This document shows positions 44,393-55,315 of a stretch of 64,000 bases of DNA, piece by piece. Made by a program: the position numbers and the translations under genes. The notes under the pieces were generated by a model. It was not told the DNA's origin, did not search any database, and saw only the letters and a list, made by a program, of their open reading frames with translations. Numbering within the stretch: the stretch's first letter is position 1; the number at the start of each line of letters is the position of its first letter. Where the stretch lies: assembly GCA_001001045.1 (NCBI GenBank), contig LCIL01000002.1, positions 9,127-73,126 of the forward strand, given 5' to 3'. The stretch is from Candidatus Woesebacteria bacterium GW2011_GWA1_44_23. GTDB taxonomy: Bacteria; Patescibacteriota; Microgenomatia; UBA8517.

Positions 44393-45400
44393 TTATTTTC
44401 TCCGTGTTTCCCAAACTTTTCCATCGATCATATTTTGGGGTTTGATTCCGCTTGCAACATCAAGAATCGCCGCCACTGACTGTTCCCCCATTTTTTGTCT
44501 TGCCTCCACGGTCGCCGAAGCAATGTGCGGAGTCATAATGACATTTGGCATGGATAAAAGCTTGGCGCTGATATTCGGTTCGCTTTCAAAAACATCCAAT
44601 GCCGCACCTCCTAATCTCCCGCAGTCCAGCGCTTCTATCAAGTCACTTTCATCAACAATGGGTCCCCTCGCGGTATTGACCAAGTAAGACCCCTGCTTCA
44701 TCTTTCCTAAAGTATCTTTGTTGATCATTCCCCGGGTCTCACCTGTCAAGGGAACATGAAGTGACACAAAGTCCGATGCGGTCAGAAGTTCGTCAAGGGT
44801 AACAAACTTTATTCCAAGTTCCTTTTCCGCCTCCGGATCCTGTTCGTGTTTGTTATAAAGGACTGTAAGATCATACCCCTTGGCACGCCTCGCCACCATC
44901 GAACCGATCCTGCCCAAGCCGATTATCCCCAACGTCTTACCTTTTACCGCAGGACCTAAAAATAAATCCGGCTCCCAGCCCCTGTATCCGCCGGAACCGG
45001 CAAAATAGCCCTGATTTCTGACAAATTCGTCAGATTCTACAACTCTTCTTGCCAGGGCCAAAACCAAAGCCCAAGTATGTTCAGCAACAGCTTCGTTCAC
45101 CTCATCACTTGGAGTGTTCGTTACTATTATTCCTCTGTCCTTCGCCGCCTCAACATCAATATTGTCAAACCCCACCGCGTAGTTAGAGATCATTTTAAGC
45201 TGCGGGCCAATTGCATCCATCAAATCGGCGTCAATCCGGTCAGTCAAAAGTGAGAGGAGTGCATCAACTCCCCTTGATTTTTCCAAAAGTTCTTCAGGAG
45301 TAAGCGGTCTATCAAATTCCGAGATGATGACTTCATTACCGTCAATTTTCAGTTTTTCTAAACTATTACCTGGAATCTTTCTGGTAACAAAAATTTTCAT
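44393..45400 (-). CDS. D-isomer-specific 2-hydroxyacid dehydrogenase (glycerate/hydroxypyruvate/phosphoglycerate dehydrogenase family)
   Basis: NAD motif GIIGLGRIGSMVARR; catalytic His region. Confidence 0.8.
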   Translation of the reverse strand: MKIFVTRKIPGNSLEKLKIDGNEVIISEFDRPLTPEELLEKSRGVDALLSLLTDRIDADLMDAIGPQLKMISNYAVGFDNIDVEAAKDRGIIVTNTPSDEVNEAVAEHTWALVLALARRVVESDEFVRNQGYFAGSGGYRGWEPDLFLGPAVKGKTLGIIGLGRIGSMVARRAKGYDLTVLYNKHEQDPEAEKELGIKFVTLDELLTASDFVSLHVPLTGETRGMINKDTLGKMKQGSYLVNTARGPIVDESDLIEALDCGRLGGAALDVFESEPNISAKLLSMPNVIMTPHIASATVEARQKMGEQSVAAILDVASGIKPQNMIDGKVWETRRK

Positions 45401-45403
45401 CGG

Positions 45404-46402
45404 TTAAAATTGTACAACACCCACACCGCTGCTTTTACATCTCGCCAGCCAGGAGTCCATTTCATTAAGTTTTAGAAGTCCCTTTTGGCTGCCGGTGTAG
45501 CCTATCACCGAAGCCGAGTTGCAAGTTCCCCAAAGCAAAGCCTCATCAAGAGATTTACCGTGAATAAGAGCTGAGAGCGCTCCGCTTCCAAAGGCGTCCC
45601 CCGCCCCTGTTCTTTCATATGCATCAACCGGCAGAGTCCCCATCTTCAAAAACCTCCCATTCACACTATCGTAAGCAAAAGATCCCACTCCCCCGTCTGT
45701 AATAATGCAGACTTTTGGACCGATTTTATTTAAAGCGATTAAAAGATCTCTTTCTTTTTCCGCCGAATCCCCAAAACCCGTCAGTTTTTCCGCTTCTTCC
45801 CGATTTACGTAAATCAGGTAGGTTGAATTCATTACTTCTCGAAACGCCTCAAGCCCGCTTCTAAGTTGCCAGCTACCGGGGTTAAATACAAGCTTAGTAG
45901 AGGGATTTTTCTTTAGCCACTCGATAAAGTGGTTGTAAAAGGGTCTGAAACTTTCACCCATCGAAGTCAGATAAACCCAGGGCGCCAGGGGAAGTTTGAC
46001 GGGAAATTCATAACTTCTCGGGGCATGGTAAACAAAAATTGTACGCTCACCCGAATAGTTAATTATTGTTGAATAATTGGACGTGGTCCCCGGCTGCTGG
46101 ATTATATAAGTAGGATCCACCCCTTCTTCCTTCAAACGGGAGACTATCATTTCCCCGACGCTGTCTTGGCCCAGCGTTAGAACTATAGAGGACACCACCC
46201 CTAACCTTCTCGTGCCTACGGCATTATTGGCGGCATTGCCTCCAATCGAAAATTCCAAATTTTTAACGGGGATTTTGTCTCCATAGGAAAATGCTATCAA
46301 ACACTCTTTTGTGTCTATCCGGCAAAGAGTTTCGCTCTCGACAGGAGTCATAAAAGTGTCTATGGTTGCATCCCCTATGCTTAATAAATCAATGTTTTCC
46401 AT
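45404..46402 (-). CDS. PfkB-family carbohydrate kinase
   Basis: GAGDAFGSG motif; 332 aa. Confidence 0.8.
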   Translation of the reverse strand: MENIDLLSIGDATIDTFMTPVESETLCRIDTKECLIAFSYGDKIPVKNLEFSIGGNAANNAVGTRRLGVVSSIVLTLGQDSVGEMIVSRLKEEGVDPTYIIQQPGTTSNYSTIINYSGERTIFVYHAPRSYEFPVKLPLAPWVYLTSMGESFRPFYNHFIEWLKKNPSTKLVFNPGSWQLRSGLEAFREVMNSTYLIYVNREEAEKLTGFGDSAEKERDLLIALNKIGPKVCIITDGGVGSFAYDSVNGRFLKMGTLPVDAYERTGAGDAFGSGALSALIHGKSLDEALLWGTCNSASVIGYTGSQKGLLKLNEMDSWLARCKSSGVGVVQF

Positions 46403-47365
46403 TTATAGCTCCCCCTTCCTCGCTTTCGAGACCTTTATCAATCTGTCTAAAAAGGTGTTCTGGGCATACTCAATGTTTTCATCTTTCCCCGACCACTGTC
46501 TCATGGTCTCCTCCTGTAATGCTCTTGAAAATGAAAATGAAAGGGGCCACGGACAATCCCCCCTCCTTTTGACAATCTCATTCAGATTATTTGTCGCCTC
46601 ATCGGGCGTTTGCCCTCCGGAAAGGAAGACTATTCCCCCAACTTCCGGCGGAACGGATTGCTTCAAAGAACGCAAGGTGACTTCTGCTACCTCGAGGGGC
46701 GCAGCTTTTACCCCACTGTCTTTACCAGGAAGAACCATATTTGTTTTTAGAATAAGATTTTTTAAATCAATACCGGCAATATTCAACTTTTCAAAAAGGA
46801 TCCGGCAGACTTTAACGGAAACTTCTGCGCAGCGCGTAGTCGTGTGATTGCCATCAAGTTGCACTTCGGGTTCTACAATAGGGGTAAACCCAGTGATCTG
46901 GGAGATTTTAGCAAATTGGGCCATTCTGTTTAAATCCTCCTCCAAAAATGCGTCTGTGGGAAAAATGTCCGATATTCTAACAGCTGCCCTCCATTTGGTA
47001 AATTTAAGACCGAGTACCGAATATTCTTTAAGCCGCGTATCGAGTCCATCCAGTCCTTTTGTAATTTGTTCTTCACTGCCGTTGAAGGATTCAAGCCCCC
47101 CGTCCACCTTAATTCCGGGAACAATGTCTTTTTCCTGAAGTATATTGTGTAAATTTTGCCGAACAGATTCGTCAAATAAAATTACTCCTCCCAAATAATT
47201 CTCAATTCCAGATGTGTTAAAAAGCATTTCTCTGTATTTTTTATTTAATTCGGGAGTTGAAGTTAAGCCCAACGTAGCAAATCTCTTCTCAATTGTATGT
47301 GTGCTCTCGTCGGCGGCGAGGATTCCCTTTCCCGGCGCAAAGAGTTTCTTAATCGTTTCTTCCAC
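46403..47365 (-). CDS. fba: Fructose-bisphosphate aldolase, class I
   Basis: GKGILAADES signature; 320 aa. Confidence 0.85.
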   Translation of the reverse strand: MEETIKKLFAPGKGILAADESTHTIEKRFATLGLTSTPELNKKYREMLFNTSGIENYLGGVILFDESVRQNLHNILQEKDIVPGIKVDGGLESFNGSEEQITKGLDGLDTRLKEYSVLGLKFTKWRAAVRISDIFPTDAFLEEDLNRMAQFAKISQITGFTPIVEPEVQLDGNHTTTRCAEVSVKVCRILFEKLNIAGIDLKNLILKTNMVLPGKDSGVKAAPLEVAEVTLRSLKQSVPPEVGGIVFLSGGQTPDEATNNLNEIVKRRGDCPWPLSFSFSRALQEETMRQWSGKDENIEYAQNTFLDRLIKVSKARKGEL

Positions 47366-47408
47366 GGCAGTTCATGATTAGTGTACAATATTTCTATATG
47401 GATCCCCA

Positions 47409-47554
47409 AGTCCCAGATGCCGAGCGGGTGGTGAGTGTTGAACCGAATCAAGCTACCGAATCACGAGTTGAAAGGCAACAAAGTCCCAGATGCCGAGCGG
47501 GTGGTGAGTGTTGAACCGAATCAAGCTACCGAATCACGAGTTGAAAGGCAACAA
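47409..47554. repeat. Perfect tandem direct duplication, 2 x 73 bp
   Basis: 47409-47481 is identical to 47482-47554; spans the start codon region of the downstream gene. Confidence 0.9.
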
Positions 47555-48142
47555 CCCAAAGATAACCATTGGATTACAATTCTTGCCATGGCAACATTTG
47601 TCCTTTTTTCGCTTGGCGTTGTTGTCTTCCTTTATTATCAAAATCAACAACTTAAAAACATGCTCGCCTCTTTCCAACCGCAGACAATCCCTACTCCGAC
47701 AGTCCTCGCATCACCCTCCCCAAATGTTGAGACCCCCATCGTCTCCTCCCCTTCGGCAAATATGAAAGTAGCCAGTCCCTTAAAAATCACCGGCAAGGTA
47801 CCGGCCGGTTGGATGAATGAGGGGGTTTTCCCCATAAAACTTGTGGACGCCAACAAAAAATTGATTGTTCAAGGGCAGGCTAAGGAAAATGTGCCGGGAA
47901 CCTGGTTAAGCGGAAACTCGGTAAGTTTTACCGCAACTCTCACTTTTGATACCAATTCCGCGTCGGGCTTTTTAGTCCTGGAAAATGATAACCCGAGTGG
48001 AGATCCTGCCAATTCAAAAACATATGAAGTGCCTGTCAAATTTTCGGAAAACGTTGCCTGCACCCTAGACGCAAAACTTTGTCCTGATGGAAGCTATGTT
48101 TCAAGAACCGGGCCCAATTGTGAGTTTGCGCCCTGCCCATAA
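47435..48142 (+). CDS. Membrane-anchored Gmad2 immunoglobulin-like domain protein
   Basis: TM helix, then ITGKVPAGWMNEGVFPIKLVD...SFTATLTF...LENDNPSG (Gmad2-like). The N-terminus is created by the 73-bp duplication; an alternative GTG start lies inside the repeat. Confidence 0.6.
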   Translation: MLNRIKLPNHELKGNKVPDAERVVSVEPNQATESRVERQQPKDNHWITILAMATFVLFSLGVVVFLYYQNQQLKNMLASFQPQTIPTPTVLASPSPNVETPIVSSPSANMKVASPLKITGKVPAGWMNEGVFPIKLVDANKKLIVQGQAKENVPGTWLSGNSVSFTATLTFDTNSASGFLVLENDNPSGDPANSKTYEVPVKFSENVACTLDAKLCPDGSYVSRTGPNCEFAPCP

Positions 48143-48786
48143 TGAAACAAAAAGGTTTTGCGCCGATTATTATTCTTCTTGTAATCACTGTTATAGGTGG
48201 GGTTGGATACTTCGCATACATAAAAGGATATCTAAATTACTTCATCCCTAAATCAAACTTTAATTCGATACCAATCCCCCCTCCTAGTTCAGATTTAACT
48301 GCCAATTGGAAAACATATACAAATACAAAATATGGATACACGATCGAATATCCGAGCAACTATTTTGTTGGTTTCTACGACGTAATTAGTGGCAATTTTA
48401 ACGCAGCCACCGGGGCAGAACATCAACTTGACATGCTTCCACCCACTAAAGATGTGTTCAACAATTTCCTCCAAATTCAAGTGGTTAATCTAAAAGAACT
48501 AAACAAAACATTCATAGAGGTGGTGAACAACAATTATAAAGAAAGCAAAAATCATTTCCAAACTACCAGCATTAGCGATTTGGTTAATTCTAAATTTGCA
48601 GGCTATTCAGATTATGAATATTCATTTACCGGCCAGGCTTTAGAGACGATTGGTTGGGGTGGCGTGGTTACTAAGGGAACATACAAAGTTATTTTTTTCC
48701 AAAAAGACGGAAACATATACTCTATATACCTAAAAGATAGCGATAGCTTTAATAAAATTCTCTCCACATTCAAATTCGCAGACTAG
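48142..48786 (+). CDS. Hypothetical secreted protein with N-terminal TM
   Basis: 214 aa. Confidence 0.45.
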   Translation: MKQKGFAPIIILLVITVIGGVGYFAYIKGYLNYFIPKSNFNSIPIPPPSSDLTANWKTYTNTKYGYTIEYPSNYFVGFYDVISGNFNAATGAEHQLDMLPPTKDVFNNFLQIQVVNLKELNKTFIEVVNNNYKESKNHFQTTSISDLVNSKFAGYSDYEYSFTGQALETIGWGGVVTKGTYKVIFFQKDGNIYSIYLKDSDSFNKILSTFKFAD

Positions 48787-49727
48787 GAGCCTCTTCGGAG
48801 AATAGCTTTTTTCACTGCCTCAATAATATTTTCTTTTTTCAGGCCAAACTTTTTCCAAAGGTCATTATAATTCTTGGCAGATTCTCCAAAAGAATCTTTT
48901 ACCCCAATAAACTCCATTGGAACCGGAAAATTCTTACTCAACATCTCAGAAACCGCACTTCCCATTCCCCCCATTATCTGATGCTCCTCAACTGTTACTA
49001 CCGCTCCAGTTATTTTGGAAAAGTGAATCAATGTTTGTTCATCAATCGGTTTAATCGTATGCAGATTAATAACAACCGCCCCTAGTCCGCCCTCTTCCAA
49101 CTGCTTTGCAGCTTCCAAAGCTTCAACAAGAACCGGTCCGGTCCCGATAAGGGCGACTTGCGGGTTTTTGGCTTCGTATAAAATGCTCGCTTTACCTATT
49201 TCGAATGTATCATCAGATTTAGTGAGAACCAAAGAGTCCTGCCTCGCCAATCGAAGATAGGTCGGTTTTCCGTTTCCTGCTATAGCACGAGTGGCTTTTT
49301 TCGCTTCTATAAAGTCACAAGGAGAAACTACAACCATGTTTGGAATTACACGCATAAGGGCGATGTCTTCCAACGATTCATGCGTAGCTCCGTACATCGA
49401 AGCCCCAAATCCTGCGTGGGCACCGATGATTTTGACGGGAACGTCATTTAAAGCCGCCGTCACCTTTATCTGCTCCCAAGTTCTTCCCGGGGAGAAAACC
49501 GCATAGCTGGTTATAAAAGGTATTTTCCCGGCCGCAGCCATCCCTGCCGCAATCGTTACAAGCCCCTGTTCGGCTACTCCAACCTGGAAAAAACGATCGG
49601 GAAATTTTTCTGCAAAGTCTTTTACTCTTGTGGATTCTGCTAAATCTGCCGTCAAAACAACTATGTCGGGGTTGTTTTCCCCCAGTTCAAGCAGCGACTC
49701 CCCAAACCCGTCCCTCATGGATTTCAT
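48783..49727 (-). CDS. tktB: Transketolase, C-terminal subunit
   Basis: Pyrimidine-binding and C-terminal domains; split-gene arrangement with tktA; start placed at MKSMRDG. Confidence 0.85.
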   Translation of the reverse strand: MKSMRDGFGESLLELGENNPDIVVLTADLAESTRVKDFAEKFPDRFFQVGVAEQGLVTIAAGMAAAGKIPFITSYAVFSPGRTWEQIKVTAALNDVPVKIIGAHAGFGASMYGATHESLEDIALMRVIPNMVVVSPCDFIEAKKATRAIAGNGKPTYLRLARQDSLVLTKSDDTFEIGKASILYEAKNPQVALIGTGPVLVEALEAAKQLEEGGLGAVVINLHTIKPIDEQTLIHFSKITGAVVTVEEHQIMGGMGSAVSEMLSKNFPVPMEFIGVKDSFGESAKNYNDLWKKFGLKKENIIEAVKKAILRRGS

Positions 49728-49729
49728 AA

Positions 49730-50509
49730 TTATTTGAGCTCCTCCATTGCTTTTGTGTACTCTTCTTCGGTTGGTGTTCTGGCGTGCCAATCGGGATTAT
49801 CCTCCATAAAGCTCACGTCTTTACCGAAAGTTGTGTTTGCAATAATTACATTGGGTTTGGCACGACTCTTTTTTACGGCCTCAACCGCCATGAAAATTTC
49901 ATCGAAACTGTGTCCGTTGATTTCCGCTACGTCCCAATCAAACGCTTTGTACTTTTCGGATAAACTCCCTATGGGCATGATTTCCTCCGTGGTTCCTTCT
50001 ATCTGGATTCTGTTTCTATCGACAATCTGAATCAAATTATTAATCTTATATTTTGCGGCAAACATTACCGCTTCCCAGTGATTTCCTTCATTATGCTCCG
50101 CGTCACTTGTTTCGCAGTAAACGTAGGAATCCTTGGCAAAAACTGCATAACCCGCAGCCTGTGCCAGTCCAAGTCCAAGAGGCCCGGAAGTATTTTCAAT
50201 CCCCTTTAATTTTGTACGTTCGGGATGTCCTTGAAGCGGTGATCCCATTTCCGTGTATGTTGAGAGTTTTTCTTTGGGAATCATTCCTTTTTGCGCCATT
50301 ACGGCATAAAGCGCGGGGCAAACGTGGCCGTTTGAAAGGAAAAAACGATCTTGTTCCTCCAAAATGCCAAAATAAAGCGCAACCATTATTTCAACAGAGC
50401 TAAGAGACCCGCCGGGGTGCCCACTCCCCGCTTTATAAATCATCTGAATGATGTCTTTACGAACCTCTTTAGAAATTTTCTGGAGCTCACTTGGTGAAAG
50501 CCTTGTCAT
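49730..50509 (-). CDS. tktA: Transketolase, N-terminal (TPP-binding) subunit
   Basis: GSGHPGGSLS motif; start placed at MTRLSP. Confidence 0.85.
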   Translation of the reverse strand: MTRLSPSELQKISKEVRKDIIQMIYKAGSGHPGGSLSSVEIMVALYFGILEEQDRFFLSNGHVCPALYAVMAQKGMIPKEKLSTYTEMGSPLQGHPERTKLKGIENTSGPLGLGLAQAAGYAVFAKDSYVYCETSDAEHNEGNHWEAVMFAAKYKINNLIQIVDRNRIQIEGTTEEIMPIGSLSEKYKAFDWDVAEINGHSFDEIFMAVEAVKKSRAKPNVIIANTTFGKDVSFMEDNPDWHARTPTEEEYTKAMEELK

Positions 50510-51131
50510 ATTCGTCTGCCTCCCCGTCTTTGCTGTGATCGCGTGCCGTGATTTTTGATTCAAATTTTTGGATAATCTGTAAAACGTCTTCCCTGCTTCT
50601 ACAGATCTCAAAAACGCCGTATTCCTTGGAATCAATATTCATGTTGCGTCTGAGAACGTCAATAATTTCTGCCCAAAAATCCCCATAAAGGATAAAAGGC
50701 TTGTGGTGACCGTAGTAAAGTTTGGCGAGAGCCCATGCGGCACCGAATTCGCTAATTGTACCGCTTCCTCCTTTGAAAATTATAAAAATGTCTCCATGCT
50801 CCATCAATTTGAACATCCTTTCAATATAGTTTGTTGTAACAATCTCGGTGTCGGTGACGTTTCCAACATATTTGCCTTCATACCCGGGAGCATTCACCGG
50901 ATCGAAAGTTACGCTAATCGTTTTCCCGCCACCCTTGACCGCTCCGCTTGTCGCGGCCTCCATCACACCCGGGCCTCCCCCGTCCACTATAACGTACCCT
51001 GCTTTTGCCAAGGCTTCGGCAACATCAAAGGCGGCTTTATATGTTTCGTCCGTTTCCGAAATGTCAGCATCGCCAAAAAAAGCGATATTTCTTATATAGT
51101 TTTTATCGGCGTATTTACCTTTTTCGTCCAT
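50487..51131 (-). CDS. LOG-family (TIGR00730) Rossmann-fold protein
   Basis: GGGPGVMEA and GGSGT motifs. Confidence 0.75.
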   Translation of the reverse strand: MDEKGKYADKNYIRNIAFFGDADISETDETYKAAFDVAEALAKAGYVIVDGGGPGVMEAATSGAVKGGGKTISVTFDPVNAPGYEGKYVGNVTDTEIVTTNYIERMFKLMEHGDIFIIFKGGSGTISEFGAAWALAKLYYGHHKPFILYGDFWAEIIDVLRRNMNIDSKEYGVFEICRSREDVLQIIQKFESKITARDHSKDGEADEYDKAFTK

Positions 51132-51142
51132 GAATTCAGCAA

Positions 51143-52249
51143 TTAAGCTTTAAAAGACATTGTCAGGGGATCTGTGGGGACACTATTTCCACCCAACGTC
51201 CGTCCAACCCGTATTACTTGCTCAATTAACCTATTCGCGTATCCCCACTCATTGTCATACCAGGCAAATATCTTGACCATATTCCCCGCAACAACTTGCG
51301 TTAACTGTAAATCAACTATAGAAGATTCGCTTCTTCCAATGATGTCGCTTGACACTAAATCCTCCCCAGATACTGCCAATATGCCCTTAAACAAGGGGTT
51401 TTCGGTAGCATCGATAAGTGCCTGATTTATCTCTTCTTTTGTCACCTGCTTATTCAGGACAAAGGTAAAATCCGTGATAGAGCCGGTTGCTACAGGGACT
51501 CTTAAAGCCATCCCATCAAATACTCCCTTAAGTTCCGGGATGGTTTCTGTTGTTGCTATCGCCGCCCCGGTTGAAGTTGGAACTATGTTCATAGCCGCTG
51601 CCCTTGCCCTTCTTAGGTCCTTATGCGAACCGTCCTGCAAATTTTGATCATCGGTATAAGAATGGATTGTTGTCATCATTGCCTTTTCAATCCCAAACTT
51701 GGAGTGGATCACGGCGGCAACAGGGGCTATGCAATTTGTAGTACAGGAGGCGTTTGATATTACTTCGGGGCTATCCTTAATCTCGTTCACTCCTATGACA
51801 TAAGTTCCAACATTTCCACCCTTGCTCGGAGCTGAAATTATAACCCGCCTGGCTCCACCCACAGCATGTTTCTTTGCCCCTTCCTCATCCGTAAAATGCC
51901 CGGTAGCCTCTATTACAACATCGACTCCATATTTCCCCCAAGGGATTTTGGCGGGATCTTTTTGCGCCAAAACCGGAACCTTGATGTTTCTCTCAGATAT
52001 TATTAAGTTCCCAATTAAAGCGTCCTCGTCGGTCACCTGATCGGGGGTTTTTGATTCTTCACTTTTAACTTTCAGCTCAAACTGCCGGTACATCGTATCG
52101 TAATTCGTTAACTGCGCCCAGCCGGCTACATTCATGCTTCCTGAAGTATTGATTGCGCCAAATTGAAGCTCGTCGGAGTGTTTTAAAACTCCTATTCTAA
52201 AAGCAATTCTTCCGATTCTTCCGAATCCGTTTATCCCTACTTTAACCAT
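51143..52249 (-). CDS. gap: Glyceraldehyde-3-phosphate dehydrogenase
   Basis: INGFGRIGR; catalytic SNASCTTNC. Confidence 0.9.
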   Translation of the reverse strand: MVKVGINGFGRIGRIAFRIGVLKHSDELQFGAINTSGSMNVAGWAQLTNYDTMYRQFELKVKSEESKTPDQVTDEDALIGNLIISERNIKVPVLAQKDPAKIPWGKYGVDVVIEATGHFTDEEGAKKHAVGGARRVIISAPSKGGNVGTYVIGVNEIKDSPEVISNASCTTNCIAPVAAVIHSKFGIEKAMMTTIHSYTDDQNLQDGSHKDLRRARAAAMNIVPTSTGAAIATTETIPELKGVFDGMALRVPVATGSITDFTFVLNKQVTKEEINQALIDATENPLFKGILAVSGEDLVSSDIIGRSESSIVDLQLTQVVAGNMVKIFAWYDNEWGYANRLIEQVIRVGRTLGGNSVPTDPLTMSFKA

Positions 52250-52279
52250 GGCAGTCTGATTCCATTATAATATATCCAT

Positions 52280-52963
52280 ATGAAGGTTTCTGTGGTAGTT
52301 CCCGCCTTTAACGAGGAAAAATATATCGGAAAGTGCCTTACAAGCATATTTAGACAGGAAGTTCCGGCAGATGAAGTTATTGTAGTAAACAATAACTCTT
52401 CCGATGAAACCGAGTCCATTGCCAGAAGTTTCGGTGCCAGAGTGATCCGGGAAAAGGTTCAAGGAATGACTCCTGCCAGGAATAGAGGTTTTAACTCAGC
52501 CAAATATGAAATAATAGCCAGGTGCGATTCGGATACGGTCGTACCCGAAAACTGGATTAAAATAATTAAAAATGATTTCAGAAAAGGAAATATCGATGCG
52601 CTTACCGGTCCAATTTTTTTTAACGATTCAGAAATACTCAAATCCACCAAGACTATTCCTGCGGATCTTGCCTATAAATCATTCAGATTGATCGCTAGGG
52701 GCAGAAAATATTTAATCGGACCAAATATGATTATTACCAAAAAGATCTGGGATCAAGTAAAGAATCTCGTGGAAATGGATGACAAAAAAGTTCATGAAGA
52801 CATAGACTTATCTCTAAAAATAGCTAAAGTCGGCGGTAGGATAAAATACGACCAATCCCTGATAGTTGGAATGTCCGCAAGACGAATTAAAAAACACCCC
52901 CAATCGTTTTTCTTGGAATACCCCGTCAGAATCGTAAAAACCTTTATGGCAAATAAAAAGTAA
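52280..52963 (+). CDS. Glycosyltransferase family 2
   Basis: VVVPAFNEE...NNNSSDET; DxD region. Confidence 0.8.
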   Translation: MKVSVVVPAFNEEKYIGKCLTSIFRQEVPADEVIVVNNNSSDETESIARSFGARVIREKVQGMTPARNRGFNSAKYEIIARCDSDTVVPENWIKIIKNDFRKGNIDALTGPIFFNDSEILKSTKTIPADLAYKSFRLIARGRKYLIGPNMIITKKIWDQVKNLVEMDDKKVHEDIDLSLKIAKVGGRIKYDQSLIVGMSARRIKKHPQSFFLEYPVRIVKTFMANKK

Positions 52964-52964
52964 G

Positions 52965-53171
52965 TTATTTCTTCTTTTTATTGGTAAGCATGGCATACGC
53001 GCCCCAGGCTCCCGCAAATCCGATTAAAGCGTAAACAATCGTCACAACTACCGGCAAACTGCCAAATAATAAAGTGACCAAATTAATATTCAGAAGCCCT
53101 ACCAAACCCCAGTTAATGGCTCCTATAACTACCAACCATTTAGAAACTGTCTTTAATTGCATGATTCTCAC
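52965..53171 (-). CDS. DUF378-family small membrane protein
   Basis: AINWGLVGL...LFG pattern; 68 aa. Confidence 0.5.
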   Translation of the reverse strand: MRIMQLKTVSKWLVVIGAINWGLVGLLNINLVTLLFGSLPVVVTIVYALIGFAGAWGAYAMLTNKKKK

Positions 53172-53221
53172 CCCCCTTCACTGTCGATATACAAGTCTTT
53201 TTAACATTAGCATATTTGTGG

Positions 53222-54190
53222 TTATTGTTTTAAGGCTTCAATTCCTGGAAGCGTCTTCTTGACCAAAAACTCAAGCATCGCTCCACCGCCAACCGAAATC
53301 CAGTCAAACCCCTCAGTCACCCGCAGGACTTGCAGCGCCTTCTCCGTATCTCCTCCACCGGCAACCTTAAATGCGAGAAGGTCTTTGATGGCTTTAAACA
53401 CCCTTTCTGTCCCCTGCCGGTGGCCCTCGTCCTCATATTTTCCAAGAGTGCCTGAAACAACAATTGTATTTGCCTTTTCTATTTCCTTTTCGAATTTCTC
53501 AATGGTGTTTAAAGTAATATCTTCCTTATCCATTGTGAGATTCCCGACAATTACCTGTTCGTTCTCCCCTCTTGACCGGACACTGACAAGCTTCTCATCT
53601 CCCATATAGTCAGGCAAACGTCCTCCGATTAATACTTTATCTGCAAATTTTTTGATTCCATCCAAATAAGCCAATTTGTCTTGCTTAACCCCGCTCAGAA
53701 GAAATACCACCGGATGTTTTGCATTCTCAATTACCCGGCCTAAATTCTCCACCTCCTTTTGAAATCTGAATCCGGCGGCATGAGGGAGAAGCTTCGGAAT
53801 TCCAACAATCGAGGCGTGTTCGCGATGGGAATTTCCAAAAGACTCGTTTATATAAACGTCCCCCCAAGATGCCATTTCCCTGGCAAAGGACTCATCGTTT
53901 GCCTCCTCACGGGGGTCAAATCTTAAGTTTTCCTTAACGTCCGCCCCCCACCTGTTGTAAATCGGCTGGAAAGGCTTGAGGCTCAAACTTTCATCAACTT
54001 TTCCTCCTGGCCTACCCTTATGGGCGATTATGATTATTTGTGCTCCCTCGCCCTTTAAATAATCCAATGTTTCTTCAGAAGACTTTATCCTTAAATCATC
54101 CGGGTAAGGGTCAGTATCAAGGTCAAGTCTCAGAAGCACTCTTTTTCCAGCAACATCTAAATCGGTAAGTTTGGGCAGATCCATATTCAA
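53222..54190 (-). CDS. pgk: Phosphoglycerate kinase (short form)
   Basis: N-terminal KLTDLDVAGKRVLLRLDLD; 322 aa. Confidence 0.75.
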   Translation of the reverse strand: MNMDLPKLTDLDVAGKRVLLRLDLDTDPYPDDLRIKSSEETLDYLKGEGAQIIIIAHKGRPGGKVDESLSLKPFQPIYNRWGADVKENLRFDPREEANDESFAREMASWGDVYINESFGNSHREHASIVGIPKLLPHAAGFRFQKEVENLGRVIENAKHPVVFLLSGVKQDKLAYLDGIKKFADKVLIGGRLPDYMGDEKLVSVRSRGENEQVIVGNLTMDKEDITLNTIEKFEKEIEKANTIVVSGTLGKYEDEGHRQGTERVFKAIKDLLAFKVAGGGDTEKALQVLRVTEGFDWISVGGGAMLEFLVKKTLPGIEALKQ

Positions 54191-54636
54191 TTATTTACCT
54201 CAATTTCTCTGATTTCCTGAAGCCGTCTCTCATACCGCGCCTTGCCCGCAAATTTCGTTTCCAGGAATGCTATCAGCATCGCTTTTGCGTCTCTCTCGTC
54301 GGTAAAATCGGCCGCAATAACCAGAATATTCATATCATCATCATTTCTTCCCGCCTCAATCTGAAAAACATCCTTTCCGATTGAGGACCTGATACCATCG
54401 AATTTGTTGGCAACTACATCTGCCCCTACTCCGCTGCCGCAAAGAAGAACTCCGCGTGATCCCTCATTGCCGGCAACCAGAGACGCCACTTCCTCGGCAT
54501 ATTTTGTGTAATCGTCATCAGGCTCAAGTCTGTGTGCTCCCACATCCTGATATGGATATTCCATATCAAAAAGCCAATGGGCAATTTTTTCTTTTAATTC
54601 GTAACCCCTATGGTCTGCCCCAATGAATATTTTCAT
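54187..54636 (-). CDS. rpiB: Ribose-5-phosphate isomerase B
   Basis: MKIFIGADHRGYELK; LLCGSGVG. Confidence 0.85.
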   Translation of the reverse strand: MKIFIGADHRGYELKEKIAHWLFDMEYPYQDVGAHRLEPDDDYTKYAEEVASLVAGNEGSRGVLLCGSGVGADVVANKFDGIRSSIGKDVFQIEAGRNDDDMNILVIAADFTDERDAKAMLIAFLETKFAGKARYERRLQEIREIEVNN

Positions 54637-54655
54637 AATTCTTTCTAAGCTTTGC

Positions 54656-55315
54656 TTATTTAAATCCCTCCGTAAGTTCCATCAATTCTTTCTTGGGATC
54701 AGCCGACTTAACGACGTCCGTTGCAACGGCTACCCCAACCGCCCCAAGCTCCAAGCTTTTCTTGACATCGGAAAGATTATGAATTCCTGCTCCAACTATA
54801 AGCGGCAAACCGGCGCTTCGTGCTATTTCTTCCGCCTGCGAAATAACCTCGGGCTGCGCCTCCGCAACAGAAGTGGTTGTCGAACCCACAAGCTCAGGAG
54901 GCTCATAGGCAACATATGTGGGAGCAAGCCCCGATATCTTCTTAAGCTCATCCAAGTTCCCTGCAAAAATCAAGGTTTTGAGGTTTAACGACATAGCTTT
55001 TTCGTTGGCCGTTTTTAGGGCATCAAAATTGTCAAATTTGTGTTCGGAGTGGTTTAAAAATACTCCCGACACCCCGACTCTTGCAGCCTCTTCCGGAAGA
55101 GTCCAGCCTGTATGTGCACCATAACTGACCGGGTCAATGTGTTGAATCCAAACCTCAAGTGTTGTCGAAGATATTATATTTTCCGCGTCAATTGTCTGGA
55201 CGACAGGAATAATTTTAACTTGACTCTCATGTGCAGCCTCCTCCAGGACTTTGGTCAAAAGGATGGCCTTCTGACCCGAACTTTCCTCAAAAGTCTTGTA
55301 ATTAACAAATATCAT
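54656..55315 (-). CDS. tpiA: Triosephosphate isomerase, archaeal-type short form
   Basis: VNYKTFEES start; VAYEPPELVG; 219 aa. Confidence 0.8.
   Translation of the reverse strand: MIFVNYKTFEESSGQKAILLTKVLEEAAHESQVKIIPVVQTIDAENIISSTTLEVWIQHIDPVSYGAHTGWTLPEEAARVGVSGVFLNHSEHKFDNFDALKTANEKAMSLNLKTLIFAGNLDELKKISGLAPTYVAYEPPELVGSTTTSVAEAQPEVISQAEEIARSAGLPLIVGAGIHNLSDVKKSLELGAVGVAVATDVVKSADPKKELMELTEGFK

Follow-up and report, generated by a model that had tools for sequence, protein, structure and literature searches.

IDBA-UD-type scaffolding is known to produce an error in which overlapping flanking contigs are joined and the overlap is left unmerged (Chen et al. 2020, Genome Res, PMC7111523), and this class of error was described by the same group that produced the genomes considered here (Chen et al., PMC7111523). 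According to related reports, the Rifle data set was assembled with IDBA-UD together with an automated Velvet-based repair (Anantharaman et al. PMC5079060; PMC4736985). The 73-bp duplication analysed here lies in a window of 64 kb (i.e., the whole stretch of DNA under analysis). Like the scaffolding errors described, it is a perfect short direct duplication at a putative contig junction, located at a strain-variant branch point, and no other assembly of the population supports it. In the described cases Ns lie between the copies, whereas the 64-kb window is free of Ns; a gap-closing or repair step would therefore have removed them, or else the join was made directly.

The other described process that bears comparison is genuine microhomology-mediated tandem duplication accompanied by a frameshift. 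The two are alike in their head-to-tail perfect copies, in the microhomology of 1 nt at the junction and in a length not divisible by 3. They differ in that the present duplication occurs in one record only, and in that its breakpoint coincides with a single-nucleotide polymorphism (SNP), with the termini of other contigs and with an anomaly in a sibling assembly. Comparison of the available sequences makes it very probable that the duplication arose in a single deposited MAG through an error of assembly or scaffolding, and that the real organism has a single copy.

The gene affected resembles the Gmad2 (PF10648) proteins of Patescibacteria in its architecture (membrane-anchored, with a C-terminal four-Cys motif), and the orthologous loci of the family possess a divergent fba neighbour, as in the window. 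Only the artificial N-terminus of the record sets it apart, together with a Pfam PF10648 match (E=4.4e-5, 24.1 bits) that falls just under the gathering threshold of 25.7 bits. An earlier reading of the sequence alone (hereafter the sequence-only reading) placed the repeat at the 5' end of a Gmad2-domain gene, and the tract does lie at the 5' end of this Gmad2-like gene. Most of the close homologues carry a precomputed PF10648 annotation, and members are named Gmad2 immunoglobulin-like domain-containing protein at NCBI.

The tandem repeat in the deposited record

Tandem Repeats Finder described positions 47408-47554 as a repeat of period 73 with 2.0 copies, 100% matches and no indels, and repeat finding resolved the tract into copy 1 (47408-47480) and copy 2 (47481-47553) at 100% identity. 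Base-by-base checking showed that the period-73 identity spans 147 nt, composed of twice 73 nt plus one shared A, which represents a microhomology of 1 nt at the duplication junction. The perfect 73-bp tandem duplication that had been noted at 47409-47554 is this same tract, and its presence in the record is confirmed. The probability of a perfect 73-nt match arising by chance is negligible, and such an origin is excluded. Across the 64 kb, Tandem Repeats Finder reported no other long tandem repeat (the runner-up has a period of 21), and no related repeats were found near the 73-nt unit.

The junction between the copies reads GGCAACA/AAGTCCC, where the slash marks the boundary; in fuller form it is ...GAAAGGCAACA/AAGTCCCAGATG... 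and, with wider flanks, ...CGAGTTGAAAGGCAACA/AAGTCCCAGATGCCGAG... The final base of copy 1 (47480) would correspond to the end of a left-hand contig, and copy 2 to the start of a right-hand contig that begins 73 nt back. The first base past the unit (47554, forward strand), which accounts for the 1-nt microhomology, is a strain-variable position, A in the window and G in other strains.

Native start and reading frames of the Gmad2-like gene

The ORF as deposited (47438-48142, forward strand) encodes 234 aa from TTG 47438, or 235 aa if counted from GTG 47435, and corresponds to GenBank KKT54879.1. Its N-terminus, (M)NRIKLPNHELKGNK, is artificial and leads into the true Gmad2-like body with its TM anchor, Ig-like domain and four-Cys C-terminal motif. 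The latter motif, C-T-x-x-x-K-x-C-P-D-G-x-x-V-x-R-x-x-P-x-C-x-F-x-x-C, is invariant in all family members; it occupies the last 30 residues of 47435-48142 (columns 236-263 of alignment A1), after the Gmad2-like domain and outside the Pfam model.

Deletion of one copy in silico yielded a continuous ORF that begins upstream of the repeat, (MISVQYFY)MDPQVPDAERVVSVEPNQATESRVERQQPKDNHWITIL..., and this single-copy reconstruction, used as a query, retrieved 981 homologues at E<=1e-3, many of them with PF10648. All 24 of the closest homologues either start with MDP... or show MDP past a short, caller-dependent extension. The MDP start is conserved in 26/26 aligned orthologues, with no variation at M1 and very little at D2 and P3, and also in two orthologous loci of other species (L011 and L012), both of which keep the codons ATG-GAT-CCC. 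Since the MDP start is conserved across homologues and orthologous loci, the native start is, on this comparison, the ATG at 47398 (MDPQVPDAERVV...), upstream of the repeat. GTG was rejected as the native start on the basis of the same conservation, and the GTG that the sequence-only reading had invoked for the single-copy state is unneeded, as the conserved upstream ATG serves. That reading had also proposed orthologues as a check on copy number and start codon; these show one copy, no repeat at the site in other species and a conserved MDP ATG, which argues against GTG. An alternative start at ATG 47374 (MISVQYFY...) is unlikely, the corresponding codon being ACT in L011 and TTG in L012.

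The 25-30 residues between MDP and KDNHW constitute the most variable part of the family, and they include the 'VVSVEPNQ' stretch that had been taken for a conserved N-terminus; the KDNHW motif and the TM helix that follows it are conserved in the alignment.

With two copies, the native ORF (47398-47514, forward strand) shifts frame and stops at 47512-47514, such that the product has 38 aa from ATG 47398, or 46 aa from ATG 47374. Because the native ATG precedes the repeat, the extra 73 nt shift the reading frame after the fourth codon of the gene rather than extending it. According to the three-frame translation, the ATG internal to the unit (47417) reads ATG CCG AGC GGG TGG TGA, i.e., MPSGW followed by a stop at 47432-47434. 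Owing to this in-frame TGA, the unit-internal ATG is unable to supply an N-terminal extension, and the 25-aa extension that had been attributed to the copy-1 ATG reading through copy 2 is cut off after 5 codons. Recoding of TGA was rejected, since this codon terminates 15 of 57 long ORFs and is thus an ordinary stop in this genome. In the two-copy state the Gmad2 body can be reached only from GTG 47435 or TTG 47438, and initiation at either codon would produce a foreign N-terminus, MLNRIKLPNHELKGNK.

Examination of the region preceding the native start reveals a -10-like hexamer, TACAAT (47384-47389, forward strand), 8 nt upstream of ATG 47398. The hexamer was read directly from the sequences and is present 6-8 nt before the ATG in the window, L011 and L012 (at about 1480-1503 in the latter two). 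A Shine-Dalgarno sequence is absent before the MDP ATG (window 47384-47400). The position of TACAAT could point to a leaderless or very short-leader mRNA. Scanning for sigma-70 promoters and terminators was uninformative in this region and did not report TACAAT.

The divergent neighbour is a class-I fructose-bisphosphate aldolase gene, fba (46403-47365, reverse strand; Pfam PF00274, E=5.4e-99), whose product of 320 aa is called identically by gene callers on other assemblies. Its GTG start at 47365 lies 32 nt from the native Gmad2-like start, and a spacing of 30-32 nt is kept across the orthologous loci, which suggests that the promoters of the two genes may be embedded in the neighbouring coding regions. 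The repeat tract sits 43-189 nt upstream of the fba start, and it had been described as lying in the fba promoter region. The tract is indeed upstream of the divergent fba, but a promoter role is weakly founded, and an effect on fba is unlikely because the 115 nt adjoining its start (47366-47480) are identical in the one- and two-copy states, only sequence farther upstream being displaced. The aldolase gene is part of a compact cluster of central-carbon genes (44393-55315), typical of CPR genomes, that includes a 2-hydroxyacid dehydrogenase, a PfkB-family kinase, class-I FBA, a LOG/Lysine_decarbox-family protein, GAPDH, PGK, RpiB and TIM; transketolase appears in this cluster as separate N- and C-terminal ORFs.

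Copy number in other assemblies and the breakpoint base

The site is crossed by at least 19 distinct other contigs, all with one copy and none with two; they derive from the same or a near-identical population, though not necessarily from the very same reads as the window. They consist of six NCBI MAGs (GCA_001793615.1, GCA_001793355.1, GCA_001793715.1, GCA_001793535.1, GCA_000999065.1 and GCA_001000385.1), ten ENA assemblies, two JGI metagenomes (3300025030 and 3300025121) and one Logan contig (SRR1658465). The ENA assemblies comprise seven MEGAHIT assemblies at k127 or k141 (ERZ27254811, ERZ27254732, ERZ27254847, ERZ27254729, ERZ27254746, ERZ909590 and ERZ909573) and three IDBA-type scaffold sets (ERZ28563683, ERZ28563774 and ERZ28564264). 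In every other assembly, the sequence ending at 47480 is joined directly to that beginning at 47554.

The closest of these contigs differ from the window by little else. The 90-kb contig of ERZ27254732 (L006) is 100% identical to window 44398-51142 (6.7 kb) save for the extra 73 nt, and another (L057) has 2 differing bases in 20 kb. Alignment to near-identical (>=99.7%) assemblies over 27515-64000 shows no indel apart from the duplication, with the exception of one contig (L065) near the window end; a more divergent strain (L066) also shows gaps against the window in this range. In one further contig (L067, SRR1658462) the product is partial, 236 aa in length and running to the contig end, which implies that this contig too would have one copy, since the duplicated frame would put a TGA there.

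Searches with a 31-mer spanning the junction returned 0 matches in the genome contig collection. The same search of the metagenome contig collection also returned 0 matches and carries no weight, as the single-copy/deletion control pattern likewise gave 0 there, although that sequence exists in a JGI contig from 3300025030 (L004). A related-locus search of the genome contigs recovered only orthologues of <=68% identity, this species being absent. At another position, the contig of GCA_001793355.1 (L005/L062) cannot be aligned over 34 nt in the equivalent of window 50872-51142, and the next 237 nt are only 95% identical; this stretch is situated inside the LOG-family gene, with no gene called there, and would stem either from local recombination between strains or from a further local error of assembly.

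An A/G polymorphism occupies the base after ...GAAAGGCAACA; this is window position 47554, which comes directly after 47480 in the single-copy sequence. The change is synonymous (CAA/CAG, the third position of a Gln codon). Five distinct contigs (L001, L008/L051/L073, L053/L077, L055 and L080) carry G, their sources being two SRR1658465 contigs (Logan and ENA), ERZ27254729, SRR2177362 and GCA_000999065.1, and the others carry A. Background strain divergence being only about 1 SNP per kb, the presence of a SNP exactly at the breakpoint would be expected by coincidence in about 1 in 500 to 1 in 1000 cases. In addition, two independent MEGAHIT contigs from different runs terminate exactly at 47480, one of 63 kb (L058, k141) and one of 22 kb (L059, k127); a unitig of a de Bruijn graph has to end at this point if the following base branches.

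The 2015 study from which the window comes also produced a sibling MAG (GCA_001000385.1, locus tag UW20; L010), in which both flanks are identical to those of the window and a 9-bp deletion, ACCCAAAGA, starts from the breakpoint base. The deletion is located in LCHK01000017.1, between L010 positions 3083 and 3084, and corresponds to window 47554-47562; the resulting junction reads GGCAACA/TAACCATTGG. Its protein, KKT32328.1, consequently reads VERQHNHW in place of VERQQPKDNHW, with loss of the nearly invariant Asp of KDNHW. The branch point has probably given rise to this deletion as a second artefact. A third MAG of the 2015 study (UV71, L080) is normal and has the G allele; since the window has A, both alleles are present in the 2015 data series.

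Origin of the duplication and status of the protein records

These observations are consistent with the following sequence of events. The A/G SNP between co-occurring strains would form a branch in the de Bruijn graph at which the left contig ends (47480). The right contig, bearing the A allele, would begin 73 nt further back, or 9 nt further on in the sibling assembly, and a scaffolding or repair step would then place the two contigs end to end, leaving the overlap or the gap unreconciled, presumably with no reads spanning the junction. The outcome would be a duplication of 73 nt in the window assembly and a deletion of 9 nt in its sibling. The true gene would then encode an ordinary protein of 223 aa from ATG 47398, anchored in the membrane at its N-terminus and bearing a Gmad2-like Ig domain. 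Of the three origins that the sequence-only reading had entertained, an assembly artefact is thus the one that gains support, from the at least 19 one-copy contigs and from the position of the breakpoint on a SNP. It is favoured also because the duplication, taken at face value, disrupts the frame of a gene that is conserved across the family in both its start and its body. Against it, an overlap of 73 nt matches neither k nor k-1 of the IDBA-UD series 40/60/80/100, which is the series given in a sibling Rifle study that followed the procedures of Brown et al. 2015 (PMC4736985). A chimeric join of strains was also considered and is unneeded, the contigs L006 and L010 matching both flanks perfectly.

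A real and very recent 73-bp tandem duplication in one Woesebacteria subpopulation, frameshifting the native ORF, is unlikely. It would have left a fresh pseudogene, or a gene rescued from GTG 47435 or TTG 47438, or else by re-initiation at the GTG GTG of copy 2 (47501/47504), near the stop at 47512-47514. The perfect copies in a finished-looking contig devoid of Ns would suit such an event, as would the 235-aa ORF, which stays open with TM anchor and domain intact, and the N-terminal tail of the family, which tolerates changes in length; bacterial tandem duplications with 1-nt microhomology do occur. Against this, the duplication is absent from all other assemblies, including one with identical flanks, its length is not a multiple of 3 within a conserved gene, and its breakpoint falls on a SNP branch point at which other contigs end and a sibling MAG is anomalous in a different manner. 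With a genuine polymorphism between duplicated and non-duplicated forms, the branch would come one base further on, past the shared A, so that contig ends at 47480 fit the SNP and not a duplication allele. We likewise regard as improbable that the duplication is a real minority-strain allele of one aquifer sample, arisen at or fixed beside the polymorphic site. If it were, the allele would switch off, or remodel N-terminally via GTG/TTG re-initiation, a conserved surface-anchored CPR Gmad2 protein, and would capture, at one moment, gene inactivation or on/off variation in a lineage of uncultivated episymbionts.

The 5' ends of surface-protein genes are a classic place for contingency loci, and the sequence-only reading had raised the possibility of a phase-variable element. 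Gain and loss of the 73 nt would in that case toggle translation of the surface-anchored Gmad2 protein, or alter the region upstream of fba, and a repeat that shifts the frame near the start of a gene encoding a surface-exposed protein, within a divergent intergenic/5' region, has the appearance expected of such a switch. Copy number is nevertheless constant, at one in at least 19 related contigs, and orthologues of other species have no repeat at the site. The single-copy ground state offers no pre-existing repeat or flanking homology on which to slip, apart from the 1 nt of microhomology, and the two states do not differ in the 115 nt nearest to fba. We therefore consider a switch of this kind highly improbable.

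The protein records agree with the assemblies. Exact look-up identified the two-copy product from TTG 47438 (P0124, 234 aa) as GenBank KKT54879.1 (locus tag UW47_C0002G0063); a separate look-up of the deposited 234-aa product returned no record. The window thus appears to belong to contig UW47_C0002 of a MAG from the 2011 Rifle aquifer data. P0124 is the only product of the duplicated state on record and originates from one contig (83 kb) of a 2015 Rifle-aquifer Candidatus Woesebacteria MAG. The single-copy reconstruction exists exactly in public data, in forms of 231 aa (P0121, the exact reconstruction obtained by deleting one copy) and 223 aa (P0122). The 223-aa form is found on 14 contigs (OGM76080.1, OGM81996.1, OGM84335.1 and OGM87962.1, together with JGI and ENA entries), and the single-copy product is identical to P0124 at every other residue. 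No record was found for the hypothetical partial product of a contig starting at the first base of the unit. The N-terminus of KKT54879.1 is false, as it is in the UniRef and MetaClust copies, and the correct protein is the 223-aa form (e.g., OGM76080.1), starting MDPQVPDAERVV. KKT32328.1 (GCA_001000385.1) probably contains a false deletion of 3 residues.

The approach provides a reusable, read-free test for artefacts of this type, in which independent assemblies of one population are compared and the breakpoint is checked for coincidence with a strain SNP and with the ends of other contigs. The gene itself is unremarkable within a large Patescibacteria family and presents nothing biologically new. 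The practical value of the finding lies in curation, i.e., in the correction of KKT54879.1 to MDPQVPDAERVV... (223 aa), and its biological significance is very small.
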